From the NCBI RefSeq assembly GCF_988243305.1, contig NZ_OZ547136.1: a DNA stretch of 64,000 nucleotides; one strand, written 5' to 3'. The notes beneath the pieces are model-generated. The model made no database searches and was not told the origin of the DNA. It saw nothing but the letters and a program-made list of their open reading frames with translations. A program made the position numbers and the translations under genes. How positions within the stretch are numbered: position 1 is the stretch's first letter; each line of letters starts with the position of its first letter. Positions 30,452 to 34,645 of the stretch are shown in pieces.

Positions 30452-30527
<76 letters not shown>

Positions 30528-30566: not shown

Positions 30567-30642
<76 letters not shown>

Positions 30643-30877: not shown

Positions 30878-31222
30878 ATGACGCCAGATGAACTTGCCAG
30901 ACTGACCGGCTATAGCCGCCAGACCATTAATAAATGGGTACGCAAGGAAGGCTGGACAACGTCACCAAAACCAGGCGTCCAGGGTGGCAAAGCCCGACTG
31001 GTTCACGTCAATGAACAGGTTCGTGAATATATTCGCAATGCTGAACGTCCAGAAGGTCAGGGAGAAGCGCCTGCCCTGTCTGGTGATGCGCCGCTTGAAG
31101 TGTTGCTGGTGACACTGGCGAAAGAGATGACGCCAGTTGAACAAAAACAGTTTACATCCTTGCTTCTGCGGGAAGGGATTATCGGATTATTACAACGCTT
31201 AGGGATTCGCGATAGCAAATAA
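30878..31222 (+). CDS. yfeC: Small putative HTH DNA-binding protein YfeC (YfeC/YfeD family)
   Basis: ORF 30863-31222; alternative ATG at 30878 (MTPDELARL...). Paralogous to the adjacent yfeD. Confidence 0.75.
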   Translation: MTPDELARLTGYSRQTINKWVRKEGWTTSPKPGVQGGKARLVHVNEQVREYIRNAERPEGQGEAPALSGDAPLEVLLVTLAKEMTPVEQKQFTSLLLREGIIGLLQRLGIRDSK

Positions 31223-31223
31223 T

Positions 31224-31616
31224 ATGAAAAGATTACGCAATAAAATGACCACCGAAGAACTGGCTGAATGCCTCGGTGTGGCTAAACAAACTGTTAACCG
31301 TTGGATCAGAGAAAAAGGCTGGAAAACGGAAAAATTTCCTGGCGTGAAAGGCGGTCGTGCCAGACTTATTCTGGTCGATACGCAAGTTTGCGAGTTTATT
31401 CAGAACACGCCAGCCTTCCATAACACGCCGATGCTTCTGGAAGCCGAAGAACCCCTTGCCGAATACGCACCGGGGATTCGCACTCCTGCTTATCGGCAAA
31501 TCATCAGCGCAATAGACAACATGACTCACAGTGAGCAGGAAAAAGTTGCGCAATTTTTGTCACGCGAAGGAATTCGTAATTTCCTTGCTCGTCTCGACAT
31601 AGATGAATCAGAATAA
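31224..31616 (+). CDS. yfeD: Small putative HTH DNA-binding protein YfeD (paralog of YfeC)
   Basis: 130 aa ORF sharing the T-EELA...G-QT-N-W-R-GW-T...PGV-GG-ARL pattern with yfeC. Confidence 0.8.
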   Translation: MKRLRNKMTTEELAECLGVAKQTVNRWIREKGWKTEKFPGVKGGRARLILVDTQVCEFIQNTPAFHNTPMLLEAEEPLAEYAPGIRTPAYRQIISAIDNMTHSEQEKVAQFLSREGIRNFLARLDIDESE

Positions 31617-32325
31617 ATAAATATCCTCCGGCATAGCCGGAGGTTTTTCAAATGCGCCTATAAGGCTCTCTTACCAGCCGCGCCCTAACAGGCGCACACG
31701 ATCTGACATTTGCATCCAACTTCGTTACTTACGGCCCGTAAACGGGCTGCCCGGATAGGGAATCGATAACTGCTCTCCCATTTTATCCTCTTCAAGCTGG
31801 TGCTTTATGTAATCCTGTATCTTCGCCGTGTTCTTACCCACCGTATCGACGTAATACCCTCTGCACCAGAACTCCCTGTTCCTGTATTTGAATTTCAAAT
31901 CACCAAACTGCTCGTAAAGCATCAGACTGCTTTTCCCTTTCAGATATCCCATAAAGCCTGATACGCTCATTTTGGGCGGGATCTCCACAAGCATATGGAT
32001 ATGATCTGCACAGCATTCAGCTTCCAGAATCCGTACACTTTTCCACTCACACAGCTTTCTCAAAATACAGCCTATTGCTCTACGCTTCTCTCTGTAGAAC
32101 ACCTGTCTTCGGTATTTTGGCGCAAATACTATGTGATATTTACAGTTCCATCGGGTGTGCGCTAAGCTCTTTTCGTTCCCCATTGGGACCCCCTTTTGAT
32201 TTCTTGTTTGACACTTGCAGTTGCCAGACCGCAAGGTGTTTTAACAAATCAAAAGGGGTTTTAATAACTGGCTCAAAGCTGAAAGCTTTCCGGAACCCCC
32301 AGCCTAGCTGGGGGTTTTCTGTGCA
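31617..32325 (-). mobile_element. IS200 (IS200/IS605 family), complete copy of about 709 bp; boundaries approximate
   Basis: Contains an IS200 tnpA, a subterminal hairpin CCTCCGGCATAGCCGGAGG (31625-31643) at the transposase-distal end, and at the transposase-proximal end a GC hairpin (32296-32314) plus a long stem-loop that sequesters the tnpA RBS. No terminal inverted repeats, as expected for IS200. Confidence 0.75.
31725..32183 (-). CDS. tnpA: IS200 transposase TnpA (HUH/Y1 single-strand transposase)
   Basis: 152 aa from MGNEKSLAHTRWNCKYHIVFAPKYRR..., with the HUH motif (ADHIHML) and a catalytic Tyr region. The ORF-track start at 32234 is an in-frame upstream extension. Confidence 0.9.
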   Translation of the reverse strand: MGNEKSLAHTRWNCKYHIVFAPKYRRQVFYREKRRAIGCILRKLCEWKSVRILEAECCADHIHMLVEIPPKMSVSGFMGYLKGKSSLMLYEQFGDLKFKYRNREFWCRGYYVDTVGKNTAKIQDYIKHQLEEDKMGEQLSIPYPGSPFTGRK

Positions 32326-32329
32326 CAAT

Positions 32330-32363
32330 AAAAAACGGCAGGGGTATCTCTCCTGCCGTTTAT
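32330..32363 (-). terminator. gltX rho-independent terminator
   Basis: Minus-strand RNA reads AAACGGCAGGagagataccCCTGCCGTTTTTT, 15 nt downstream of the gltX stop. Confidence 0.85.
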
Positions 32364-32377
32364 CTTTTATGCGCTAA

Positions 32378-33793
32378 TTACTGCTGATTTTCGCGTTCAG
32401 CAATAAAAGCCAGCGCTTTGTTGATACGCTCGATACTGCGGGTCTTACCGATTGCGTGAACGGTAACATCCAGCGCCGGAGACTGCCCCGCACCGGTTAC
32501 GGCGACACGCAGCGGCATACCAACTTTACCCATCCCCACTTCCAGCTCATCCGCCGTCGCCTGAATAGCGTGATGAACGTTTTCAGCGGTCCAGTCAGTA
32601 ATCGCGGCCAGTTTGTCACGAACCACTTCCAGCGGCTGACGCGCTACCGGACGCAGATGTTTTTTCGCGGCGTCGGCATCGAACTCAGCAAAATCTTCGT
32701 AGAAATAGCGGCAGCTCTGTGCCATCTCTTTCAGCGTCTTGCAGCGTTCACCCAGTAGTTTCACCAGATCAGCCAGCTGCGGGCCGTTACGGGTATCGAT
32801 ATTTTCCTGCTCAATGTGCCACTGTAAGTGAGTAGCAACATACTCCGGCGGCAGCGCGTTAATGTAGTGATGGTTCAGCCACAGCAGCTTGTCGGTGTTG
32901 AACGCACTGGCAGATTTGCTGACGGCATTCAGAGTGAAGTATTTGATCATCTCTTCACGAGTGAAGATTTCCTGATCGCCGTGGGACCAGCCCAGACGCA
33001 CCAGATAGTTCAGCAGTGCTTCTGGCAAATAACCGTCATCACGATACTGCATTACGCTGACCGCCCCGTGACGTTTGGACAGTTTTTTGCCGTCATCGCC
33101 GTTGATCATAGAAACGTGCGCGTAAACCGGTACCGGCGCTTTCAGTGCTTTAAGAATGTTGATCTGGCGTGGCGTGTTGTTGATATGGTCTTCGCCACGG
33201 ATAACGTGGGTGATTTCCATATCCCAGTCGTCAACCACCACACAGAAGTTATAGGTTGGAGAACCATCGGTACGACGGATAATCAGATCATCCAGCTCCT
33301 GGTTGCTGAATTCGATCGGACCACGGATCTGATCGTCAAAAACAACAGAACCTTCCTGCGGGTTAGCAAAACGTACAACACACGGTTCATCATCAGCATG
33401 ATGCTCATGGCTGTGGCGGCAGCGACCGTCATAACGCGGCTTCTCACCTTTCGCCATTTGCTCTTCGCGCAGCGCTTCCAGGCGCTCTTTAGAGCAATAG
33501 CATTTATAAGCAGTGCCCTCTTCCAGCATCTGATCGATCACCGCGTTGTAGCGATCAAAACGTTTGGTCTGGTAGTACGGACCTTCATCCCACTCCAGGC
33601 TCAGCCAGTTCATGCCATCCATAATGGCTTCGATAGCTTCCGGCGTGGAACGCTCAAGATCGGTGTCTTCAATACGCAGCACGAACTCACCGCCGTGGTT
33701 ACGTGCAAAAAGCCAGGAGTAAAGAGCAGTACGCGCGCCGCCAACGTGCAGATAGCCTGTTGGGCTTGGCGCGAAGCGAGTTTTGATTTTCAT
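32378..33793 (-). CDS. gltX: Glutamyl-tRNA synthetase
   Basis: 471 aa class I aaRS with a HIGH-type motif ([14 protein letters not shown]) and a KMSKS-type motif (KLSKR). Confidence 0.95.
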
Positions 33794-34051: not shown

Positions 34052-34127
34052 GGGTGATTAGCTCAGCTGGGAGAGCACCTCCCTTACAAGGAGGGGGTCG
34101 GCGGTTCGATCCCGTCATCACCCACCA
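34052..34127 (+). tRNA. valU: tRNA-Val (anticodon UAC)
   Basis: GGGTGATTAGCTCAGCTGGGAGAGCACCTCCCTTACAAGGAGGGGGTCGGCGGTTCGATCCCGTCATCACCCACCA (76 nt). Confidence 0.95.
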
Positions 34128-34171
34128 ACTACTTTATGTAGTCTCCGCCGTGTAGCAAGAAATTGAGAAGT

Positions 34172-34247
34172 GGGTGATTAGCTCAGCTGGGAGAGCACCT
34201 CCCTTACAAGGAGGGGGTCGGCGGTTCGATCCCGTCATCACCCACCA
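34172..34247 (+). tRNA. valX: tRNA-Val (anticodon UAC)
   Basis: Identical 76 nt sequence, second copy. Confidence 0.95.
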
Positions 34248-34293
34248 CTTTCTCGCCAGCTAAATTTCTTGTAAAAATGTGAAGTACCGAAGT

Positions 34294-34369
34294 GGGTGAT
34301 TAGCTCAGCTGGGAGAGCACCTCCCTTACAAGGAGGGGGTCGGCGGTTCGATCCCGTCATCACCCACCA
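34294..34369 (+). tRNA. valY: tRNA-Val (anticodon UAC)
   Basis: Identical 76 nt sequence, third copy. Confidence 0.95.
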
Positions 34370-34373
34370 CTTC

Positions 34374-34449
34374 GGGTCGTTAGCTCAGTTGGTAGAGCAG
34401 TTGACTTTTAATCAATTGGTCGCAGGTTCGAATCCTGCACGACCCACCA
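34374..34449 (+). tRNA. lysV: tRNA-Lys (anticodon UUU)
   Basis: GGGTCGTTAGCTCAGTTGGTAGAGCAGTTGACTTTTAATCAATTGGTCGCAGGTTCGAATCCTGCACGACCCACCA (76 nt). Confidence 0.95.
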
Positions 34450-34454
34450 ATGTA

Positions 34455-34480
34455 AAAAAGCGCCCTAAAGGCGCTTTTTT
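34455..34480 (+). terminator. Terminator of the val/lys tRNA operon (AAAAAAGCGCCctaaaGGCGCTTTTTT)
   Basis: Perfect hairpin with flanking A-tract and T-tract immediately after lysV. Confidence 0.85.
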
Positions 34481-34586
34481 GCTATCTGCGATACTCAAAG
34501 ATTCGAACCTGCAGCAGGTTCGAGTTGAGCGCAGCGAAACAACGGAGCCGCTCGCGGCGACGGCCCGAAGGGCGAGCGAAGCGAGT

Positions 34587-34645
34587 CATCCTGCACGACC
34601 CACCAATGCAAAAAAGCGCCCTAAAGGCGCTTTTTTGCTATCTGC
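34587..34645 (+). repeat. Direct repeat of the lysV 3' end (from the T-arm) plus its terminator; tRNA-Lys 3' remnant
   Basis: ATCCTGCACGACCCACCAATGcAAAAAAGCGCCCTAAAGGCGCTTTTTTGCTATCTGC duplicates 34431-34488 with one mismatch; preceded by GCAGGTTCGAG and an inserted GC-rich segment. Confidence 0.7.

Follow-up and report, generated by a model that had tools for sequence, protein, structure and literature searches.

The window analysed here, a stretch of 64,000 nucleotides from contig NZ_OZ547136.1 (RefSeq assembly GCF_988243305.1), carries in this order pdeA, two tRNA-Ala genes, yfeC, yfeD, an insert, gltX, and three tRNA-Val genes with tRNA-Lys. The insert, located at 31616..32326 on the minus strand, is a complete copy of the known element IS200C of the IS200/IS605 family, with a length of 711 bp as obtained by comparison with the empty site in L001, L002 and L013. 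On one side it meets yfeD (31224..31616, plus strand, 130 aa), whose stop codon TAA at 31614-31616 abuts the right end of the IS; drawn in this way, the block touches the last base of the stop codon and leaves the protein unaltered. On the other side lies gltX (32378..33793, minus strand), the gene of glutamate-tRNA ligase, which is co-oriented with the transposase gene tnpA and situated upstream of it. The target of integration is the intrinsic terminator of gltX (32327..32358, minus strand), composed of a hairpin at 32336-32358 (-16.5 kcal/mol) and the T-tract TTTTTTATT, which runs from 32335 to 32327. A preliminary description, made from the letters of the DNA alone, had already recognized an IS200 copy adjoining both the yfeD stop codon and the gltX terminator, the latter being placed at 32330-32363 and not at the hairpin and T-tract positions given above; the open reading frame, the hairpins and the stem-loop that it listed for the element were all recovered at its positions or 1-2 nt away from them.

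Over 31617-32325 the window could be aligned end to end, with 100% identity (709/709), to copies annotated by RefSeq/PGAP as 'IS200/IS605-like element IS200C family transposase', and the name IS200C as used here rests on this annotation of identical copies, not on an ISfinder reference. Full-length copies occur in 2,063 complete E. coli genomes, and some match is found in 3,094 of 5,426, the IS200 places in these genomes amounting to 10,749; the window carries the commonest IS200C allele, present at many loci. The ends of the element were defined from 74 left and 29 right flanks of independent copies. On the right, 28 of 29 distinct copies finish with …ATATTTATT, the flanks diverging immediately beyond, and on the left TT precedes GTGCACAG in 74 of 74 distinct flanks; in IS orientation the element of the window accordingly reads 5'-GTGCACAGAAAA…ATATTTATT-3'. 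The dinucleotide TT is invariant at both junctions, which leaves a 2-nt ambiguity in drawing the IS ends. The length of about 709 bp proposed at first has to be replaced by the 711 bp of the inserted block, while the proposed completeness is borne out by the end-to-end match, the family model, the HUH motif and catalytic tyrosine of the transposase, and the Rfam STnc490 match described below. No further IS200 copy was found in the window, where the left-end hairpin occurs once (chance expectation for its 19-mer, 0.01 per window). IS200C is a known element, and its site in the window is a characteristic one.

The single open reading frame of the 711 bp is tnpA (31725..32183, minus strand, stop codon included), encoding a Y1 HUH transposase of 152 aa; the element consists of tnpA only, lacking both tnpB and iscB. 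The assignment as IS200 TnpA, suggested early on, is well founded: the protein matches the NCBIfam model NF033573 (transpos_IS200) with E=6.7e-43 and 145.9 bits (cutoff 55), residues 61-63 form the HUH motif (H61-I-H63), and Tyr125 is the catalytic tyrosine, in line with the use of the Y125F variant as a catalytically dead control for IS200 TnpA (PMC4513863). Homologues of known structure comprise 2EC2 (E=1.2e-22), the ISHp608 transposase 2A6M (E=1.1e-18) and the ISDra2 transposase 2XM3 (E=4e-16), the IS200, IS608 and ISDra2 transposases in the PDB spanning E=1e-22 to 2e-14.

Neither end carries a terminal inverted repeat: an inverted-repeat scan of the element returned hairpins at 31620-31648 and 32294-32316, and none of the pairings joins the two termini, as the preliminary description had maintained. 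Both hairpins it had drawn, at 32296-32314 in the left end (LE) and at 31625-31643 in the right end (RE), are perfect 8-bp stems with 3-nt loops. The LE subterminal hairpin, AACCCCCAGC-TAG-GCTGGGGGTT (32294..32316, minus strand, -18.7 kcal/mol), occupies IS nt 11-33 here, compared with nt 12-34 as published (PMC4513863). In Salmonella IS200 this hairpin is a bidirectional Rho-independent terminator against impinging transcription, by which ≈ 85% of the upstream transcripts are stopped (PMC5435999). The RE subterminal hairpin, CCTCCGGC-TAT-GCCGGAGG (31625..31643, minus strand, -15.5 and -15.9 kcal/mol), is terminator-like on both strands, being followed by ATATTTATT in the sense of tnpA and by TTTTTC for transcripts coming from yfeD. 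The same ATATTTATT forms the terminal tail of the RE (31616..31624, minus strand), which extends up to the right cleavage site and is found in 28 of 29 copies.

Between the LE hairpin and tnpA, the leader contains a long inverted repeat, whose arms 32190-32205 and 32243-32258 pair to form the 5'UTR stem-loop (32189..32258, minus strand; published as nt 69-138). The leader folds with -43.9 kcal/mol (z=-4.1), a stability reached by 0 of 200 shuffled sequences, and in the predicted fold the Shine-Dalgarno sequence AAGGGGGU is buried in the stem, so that the sequestration of the tnpA ribosome-binding site claimed beforehand agrees with the pairing of the arms, the z-score and the position of this motif. 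The Rfam model RF01405 (STnc490) matches 32193-32316 over its full length (model positions 1-124) with 146.4 bits against a gathering score of 56; the model matches the tnpA-sense strand, whereas STnc490/art200 is defined as antisense in the literature. In Salmonella, the stem-loop region of the 5'UTR is the source of the processed sRNA 5'tnpA, a repressor of invF with effects on more than 70 genes (PMC5435999). The antisense RNA art200 has its 5' ends at IS nt 153/154, comprises 90 nt, and shows complementarity to the 5'UTR as well as to tnpA's first three codons (PMC4513863); with IS nt 1 set at 32326, an art200 (STnc490) of ≈ 90 nt is predicted, by homology only, at approximately 32174..32263 on the plus strand. 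Expression, Hfq binding and a regulatory role of the IS200 leader RNAs have been published only for Salmonella and for an IS200 from Salmonella placed in E. coli K-12 (PMC4513863, PMC5435999), and by analogy the expression of tnpA in the window should be low owing to the stem in which the Shine-Dalgarno sequence is hidden, to art200 and to Hfq; translation of TnpA, in particular, would be held down by the 5'UTR stem-loop together with art200. The preliminary suggestion of a regulatory leader RNA and of rare transposition is in line with the same two papers. A simple promoter scan of 31100-32500 found no sigma-70-like site, in agreement with the published statement that the promoter elements of IS200 tnpA are undefined and weak.

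IS200 has been called mostly dormant, its transposition being barely detectable (PMC4513863), and this description lends some support to a reading of the window copy as a fossil that is no longer mobile. Such a relic is very improbable, since the open reading frame and both ends are intact, the sequence is the commonest allele at many loci, and insertions at yfeD/gltX itself have been recurrent and recent, as set out below. Moreover, hardly any sequence difference is reported between IS200 copies that are active and those that are not, and de-repression allows the Salmonella TnpA to transpose in E. coli (PMC4513863). Judged by its sequence, the IS200C copy in the window is apparently functional.

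The empty counterpart of the locus reads TCAG, followed by A or C and ATAAATAAAAAACGG, in its longer form …GATGAATCAG, A or C, ATAAATAAAAAACGGCAGG… (L001, L002, L013), whereas the window reads …TCAGAATA/AATAAATATCCTCC…TGTGCAC/AATAAAAAACGG… across the insert, with slashes at the junctions. From this comparison it follows that the inserted block comprises 711 bp and that no target bases were duplicated or lost; in both types of junction described below, the left and right flanks add up to the exact sequence of the empty site, leaving no target-site duplication. Since AATAAA is present at both junctions, the placement of the block at the gltX site can slide by up to 6 nt (rightwards). Of 5,426 complete E. 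coli genomes, 5,398 have the gltX flank, whereas queries spanning the junctions detected the two junctions in no more than 9. In the K-12-like strain 8A (L002) and in an O16:H48 strain only the gltX flank was matched, and these sites are empty, in accordance with the statement in the preliminary description that K-12 carries no IS200 at this position; the empty site that it proposed to look for in related genomes was likewise found. Occupation of so few genomes identifies the insertion as lineage-specific and not ancestral, again as had been supposed. The left flank of the window shows 0/640 differences from that of the empty-site genome VCSW7. The last codon of yfeD, GAA (Glu) in the window and GCA (Ala) in K-12-type sequences, was considered as a footprint of the insertion and rejected, as the empty site of VCSW7 also has GAA.

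When the nine occupied genomes are compared with the window, two insertion points emerge that are 3 nt apart. Type 1 is located after …TTTTTTATT on the gltX-sense strand and comprises the window, Ec42 and 98210, the last with one ATAA unit missing; type 2 follows …TTTTTT, 3 nt upstream, in 14EC020, HCM-28C-2, AF40, 10034940-2 and 15.03CC, and a variant with one extra A, type 2', is found in DETEC-S792 and B19374. The junctions are AATA/IS/AATAAAAAACGG in type 1 and ATAAAT/IS/AAAAAACGG in type 2, and the orientation of IS200 is identical in 10 of 10 copies at the gltX site. Three type-2 genomes possess K-12-type flanks up to both ends of the IS, with 1/640 and 0-1/1300 differences from strain 8A, and share their IS allele with 98210, the left flank of which differs at 44/640 positions. 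The IS of AF40 differs from all others at 23-26/706 positions, yet the left flank of AF40 shows no difference from the window's, while Ec42 and 98210 have identical flanks and IS copies that differ at 4 positions. From two junction points, at least three flank backgrounds and discordant IS alleles we infer at least three independent insertions at yfeD/gltX, all in one orientation. Part of the allele discordance may stem from gene conversion between IS copies; as gene conversion is able to produce a discordance of alleles and flanks, this evidence is supporting only, and the junction types and the K-12-type flanks are firmer.

One should consider in this context whether a single ancestral insertion, passed on vertically or by recombination, could have given rise to all ten copies, the junction differences being due to slippage in the (ATAA)n/A-run. 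Slippage evidently occurs at this site, as seen from the ATAA unit lost in 98210 and the A gained in type 2', and the window and Ec42 share type 1 with a divergence of the IS (5/706) similar to that of the flanks (15/1940). Nonetheless, each junction class rebuilds the empty site exactly, so that a single slip does not suffice to turn one into the other: conversion of type 1 into type 2 requires a 3-nt loss on one side and a matching 3-nt gain on the opposite side, and still both restore the empty site. A single event also has to contend with the three genomes in which K-12-type sequence, including the different terminator loop GGCAGGATATTATCTCCTGCC, extends up to both ends of the IS, with the mere nine occupied genomes among 5,398 that have the gltX flank, and with the 4-35 IS200 places per occupied genome (against a median of 1). 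On this evidence one ancestral insertion is hardly credible. The view of the insertion as a strain marker, put forward at the outset, must be modified along these lines, in that the insertion is indeed not ancestral, but with at least three events it is recurrent and not a single marker.

As to the neighbouring genes, in the empty genomes the gltX terminator is bidirectional and common to gltX and yfeD. Its hairpin and T-tract are intact despite the insertion, and the effect on gltX is expected to be nil; transcripts that read through this terminator would then meet the LE hairpin. For transcripts of yfeD, on the other hand, the probable end is now the RE hairpin with its TTTTT, which starts 9 nt past the yfeD stop codon, has -15.5 kcal/mol and was flagged as terminator-like; given this arrangement, it is reasonable to suggest, as was done at first, that yfeD obtains a terminator or 3'UTR from the IS, and the role is plausible. 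The element itself is expected to be insulated by the gltX terminator and the LE hairpin upstream and by the RE hairpin downstream. Whether the copy has been co-opted is a separate matter; it might be kept as yfeD terminator or 3'UTR, or for regulation in trans by 5'tnpA and art200 as in Salmonella. A plausible yfeD terminator, the RNA elements intact in the window copy and the action of 5'tnpA on invF and more than 70 genes (PMC5435999) would fit such a role. Retention for function is nevertheless improbable, as the insertion is rare (9/5,426) and polymorphic, a good bidirectional terminator already exists at the empty site, and other IS200C copies in a genome would give the same RNAs. Moreover, the known 5'tnpA target invF (SPI-1) is a Salmonella gene.

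The position of the copy at the end of the gltX T-tract is understood here as a consequence of the target preference of IS200. Read in the orientation of the IS, the left junction is CCTGCCGTTTTTTATT/GTGCAC…, so that the flank stops with the end of the U-tract of the gltX terminator. In all, 74 distinct IS200C left flanks were assembled from 96 stretches (exact left-end matches on metagenome contigs) and the loci already retrieved. T is present at positions -1 and -2 in 74/74 and at -5 in 73/74 of these flanks, and position -3 is T or A in 64/74. A GC-rich hairpin with a T-rich tail ends exactly at the junction (…TT/GTGCAC) in 67 of the 74 sites (91%), compared with 1.3% of random positions, 17% of all TTWTT motifs in the window and 29% of the intergenic ones (OR 23, p=3e-18), all of these values being obtained with a home-made and lenient hairpin detector. 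Abutting the T-tract of a terminator is the rule for IS200C sites, and the gltX site is typical. Several other terminators have been used twice, with slightly shifted junctions (L022/L087, L025/L095, L024/L085 and L083/L102).

The same pattern extends to relatives of the element. Among the matches listed, multi-copy families with the hairpin CCCCAGCTAGGCTGGGG occur in Vibrio ruber, Mailhella, Desulfovibrio, a Bacillota MAG, Peptococcaceae, Oxalobacter, Brenneria and Dickeya, and their copies part ≈ 13 nt ahead of the hairpin, at a point that immediately follows a host hairpin with its T-run. A crude cross-species count at a fixed offset of 13 nt gave hairpin plus T-run at 77/112 sites, and TnpA was nearby in 25/33 of the listed 17-mer sites with enough downstream sequence; the cross-phylum pattern rests on the multi-copy families with a visible boundary, not on this count. 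A preprint of 2025-26 (10.1101/2025.07.22.666184) describes terminator-like sequences as enriched immediately upstream of ISs, with the strongest effect for IS200/IS605. In the literature searched, which did not include the key older reviews, this family-level enrichment was all that could be found, and no mechanistic account of terminator targeting by IS200 was encountered.

Taken together, we regard this reading as highly probable: the window holds a complete IS200C, inserted without duplication at the end of the gltX T-tract, the clade uses T-runs following hairpins, and insertion here has been recurrent. What the data show is the identity and completeness of the element, its ends, the empty site, its rarity and recurrence, and the association with terminators; guide pairing, a part of the hairpin in targeting, the effects on transcription and the activity of the copy are deduced from them. 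Mechanistically, IS200C would integrate as single-stranded DNA, without target duplication, directly 3' of the gltX terminator T-tract, and the IS200 clade generally would do so at T-runs preceded by GC-rich hairpins, at the 3' end of the run (TTWTT/). The strand receiving the insertion would be the gltX-sense strand, presumably the lagging-strand template: the GC skew of the plus strand is negative throughout the window, which marks the tnpA/gltX-sense strand as such, and it is a rule of the IS200/IS605 family that the active (top) strand lies on the lagging-strand template. For 50 independent loci, 34 orientations fit this rule by local GC skew, with p=0.015 against 50% and p=0.07 against a 55% baseline.

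A rationale for the T-run is offered by IS608, in which a 4-nt guide located 5' of each hairpin recognizes the tetranucleotides of cleavage site and target by base pairing, the target remaining on the left flank (PMC5934647). The window copy has AAAA in front of both hairpins, …CAGAAAA/CCCCC… in the LE and …TTGAAAAA/CCTCC… in the RE, and the RE terminates with TATT. The candidate left guide AAAA (32315..32318, minus strand) is directly 5' of the core of the LE hairpin, and the candidate right guide AAAAA (31644-31648, minus strand) directly 5' of the RE hairpin. For the left guide, pairing with the T-rich target is predicted, and most likely it is this pairing with the T-tract, as in IS608, that directs the element to its site; an AAAA guide, a TATT right end and a TTWTT target would account for the T-run specificity. 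Among the matches listed, relatives belonging to several phyla have kept GAAAAC 5' of the hairpin. No covariation of guide and target was seen among these relatives, all of which have GAAAAC and T-runs.

The terminator hairpin would contribute in some further way. Its involvement may reflect a structural likeness to the RE, where a hairpin is likewise followed by ATATTTATT, or it may reflect selection against polar insertions, and the static data fit both. In the first case, TnpA would read host terminators as a combined signal of structure and sequence, the AAAA guide acting on the T-tract and an RE-like GC hairpin capturing the site, a mechanism we put forward tentatively and would not yet call probable. 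In the second, IS200 integrates at any exposed TTWTT, the hairpin plays no part, and only harmless copies behind terminators persist. It can be rationalized that, with strong terminators at both ends of the IS, insertions in genes, promoters and 5'UTRs are polar and are purged; an upstream hairpin, moreover, is already present at 29% of the intergenic TTWTT sites. An IS200-type insertion in inv of Y. pestis, historically selected, is reportedly located inside the gene. The hisD984 insertion, likewise one of the historically selected ones, is also inside a gene (PMC4513863), indicating that sites other than terminators can be used. Such survivorship is nonetheless doubtful as the sole cause, as 91% of IS200C sites exceed the 29% of intergenic T-runs by far, many copies are 100% identical and hence recent, in several phyla the junction is placed exactly where the terminator T-tract has its 3' end, and the same terminators (gltX and the four pairs of loci listed above) were used repeatedly a few nt apart.

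If recognition of structure and sequence by TnpA is correct, every terminator is a reusable and transcriptionally silent safe harbour, and both the same-orientation repeats at yfeD/gltX and the conservation of the arrangement in taxa ranging from Enterobacteria to Bacillota and Desulfovibrionaceae would be explained. Class C group II introns, which home just downstream of intrinsic terminator stem-loops, offer a functional analogy for such a safe harbour, and no more than that; they are retrohoming ribozymes with a reverse transcriptase, unrelated to IS200C in mechanism and sequence. Already as an empirical rule, the preference for terminator tails may be of practical value: it predicts the locations of IS200-type elements and accounts both for their tolerance at high copy number and for the repeated use of the same intergenic sites. 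It also suggests a simple and testable rule of target recognition, the targeting of IS200 TnpA not having been found defined in the literature searched. Targeting of terminator tails and its mechanism are the only mildly interesting part of the locus, the window copy being a common E. coli insertion sequence whose site is typical and probably neutral; it serves mainly to mark a lineage and to urge caution in annotation. Because the same intergenic terminators are used repeatedly, a shared IS200 site is unsafe as evidence of common ancestry.

Among known systems, Salmonella IS200 has the same layout, with the LE terminator at nt 12-34, a tnpA start near nt 40, the stem-loop at nt 69-138, art200, and a TnpA of 152 aa with Y125 (PMC4513863); it is quoted as 707 bp, compared with 711 bp here by empty-site comparison, and otherwise no difference was noted. 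Relative to IS200C of E. coli, the sequence is identical, only the insertion site at yfeD/gltX being rare. IS1541 of Yersinia, likened here by its description, is a closely related high-copy orthologue of IS200 that also expresses STnc490 (PMC4513863). IS608 of Helicobacter pylori and ISDra2 share with IS200C a homologous Y1 HUH TnpA, subterminal hairpins, the lack of terminal inverted repeats and of target-site duplication, an orientation-specific mode of insertion 3' of a short target kept on the left flank, and a 4-nt sequence at the guide position 5' of the hairpins. In contrast to both, IS200C has no tnpB and targets the T-run TTWTT instead of TTAC or TTGAT; furthermore, a GC hairpin of the host adjoins nearly all IS200C insertions, a feature not described for IS608, and the pairing of the guide in IS200C is modelled on that element. 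Finally, the TnpA_REP proteins of the REP/RAYT system are Y1 HUH relatives that recognize extragenic GC-rich hairpins. The TnpA of the window matched the REP-type model NF047646 only weakly (31 bits, below the cutoff of 80) and, unlike those proteins, is a bona fide IS200 TnpA within a complete IS.

The gap between yfeD and gltX draws more than one member of the IS200/IS605 family, as seen in strain EC556, where another element of this family, consisting of insQ/tnpB and a tnpA pseudogene (locus L012, 3281-4791), lies within the last codon of yfeD. This element, which differs from IS200C and is also found in EC571 and EC581 (match rows H91 and H92), has the junction …TCAGC/TTGACATCC… in yfeD and provides the gene with a new TGA stop. 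In both EC556 and DETEC-S792 a second IS200C copy (about 1500-2240 in L012 as well as in L005, the DETEC-S792 locus) adjoins the tRNA-Ala operon terminator, with the junction …AAGCGGGGGTTTTTT/GTG directly past it. This copy is a further terminator-tail insertion, only ~1.5 kb from the yfeD/gltX site; the equivalent position in the window, between pdeA (30304) and tRNA-Ala (30455), is empty. EC556 carries one tRNA-Ala gene (L012, 2247-2322), in contrast to the two tandem copies in the window (30455-30527 and 30570-30642) and most relatives. On the other side of the locus, an RtT RNA (RF00391, 51.6 bits; window 34480-34605, plus strand) downstream of the tRNA-Val ×3/tRNA-Lys cluster (34052-34446) looks like ordinary tRNA-operon context. 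The yfeD locus of HCM-28C-2, one of the occupied genomes, has undergone several IS events: yfeC is missing, and yfeD has lost its 5' end to an IS4-like element, ISVsa5, and a fragment of the IS110 family (L011, 1-1785).

The last codon of yfeD is itself polymorphic (window 31612; L001 and L002 versus L013 among the empty-site loci). K-12-like and THO-006 genomes end in GCA (Ala), whereas the window, the empty-site genome VCSW7 and the occupied genome AF40 end in GAA (Glu); the allele is thus independent of the presence of the IS. The (ATAA)n/A-run at the right-end junction of the IS differs in length among genomes, being 4 nt shorter in 98210 (L004, 1430-1470) and 1 nt longer in DETEC-S792 and B19374 (L005 and L008), which suggests either slippage after insertion or slightly differing target alleles.

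At the left end, six of the nine genomes with the insertion have a short pseudo-CDS in their PGAP annotation, in the opposite orientation to tnpA (L003, 2831-2911; L004, 2122-2202; L005, 4096-4173; L006 and L007, 2584-2661; L011, 2469-2546; equivalent to window 32297-32377, plus strand), labelled 'IS200/IS605 family transposase, incomplete, missing N-terminus'. This feature runs across the left-end hairpin and the terminator of gltX as well as the interval as far as the gltX stop, and looks like an annotation artefact that arises from translation of the hairpin sequence. The same hairpin, a terminator, lies within a match to Rfam RF01405 (STnc490) at window 32193-32316 on the tnpA-sense strand. 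Since STnc490/art200 was defined as an RNA antisense to the tnpA 5'UTR (PMC4513863), the match marks the art200 locus but apparently not the art200 strand. An additional 13-nt inverted repeat, 85% complementary (31653-31665/31684-31696), is situated inside IS200C, in the stretch from the tnpA stop to the right-end hairpin.

Among the matches listed (L110-L229), the 17-nt core of the left-end hairpin, CCCCAGCTAGGCTGGGG, is exactly kept in IS200-like elements of far-removed taxa, namely Bacillota, Desulfovibrionaceae, Vibrio, Oxalobacter, Leptospira and Saccharibacteria MAGs. This exact conservation reflects either an unusually strong constraint on the DNA hairpin or recent horizontal spread; the TnpA proteins of the listed elements with this core share 40% to 97% identity with the E. 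coli protein.
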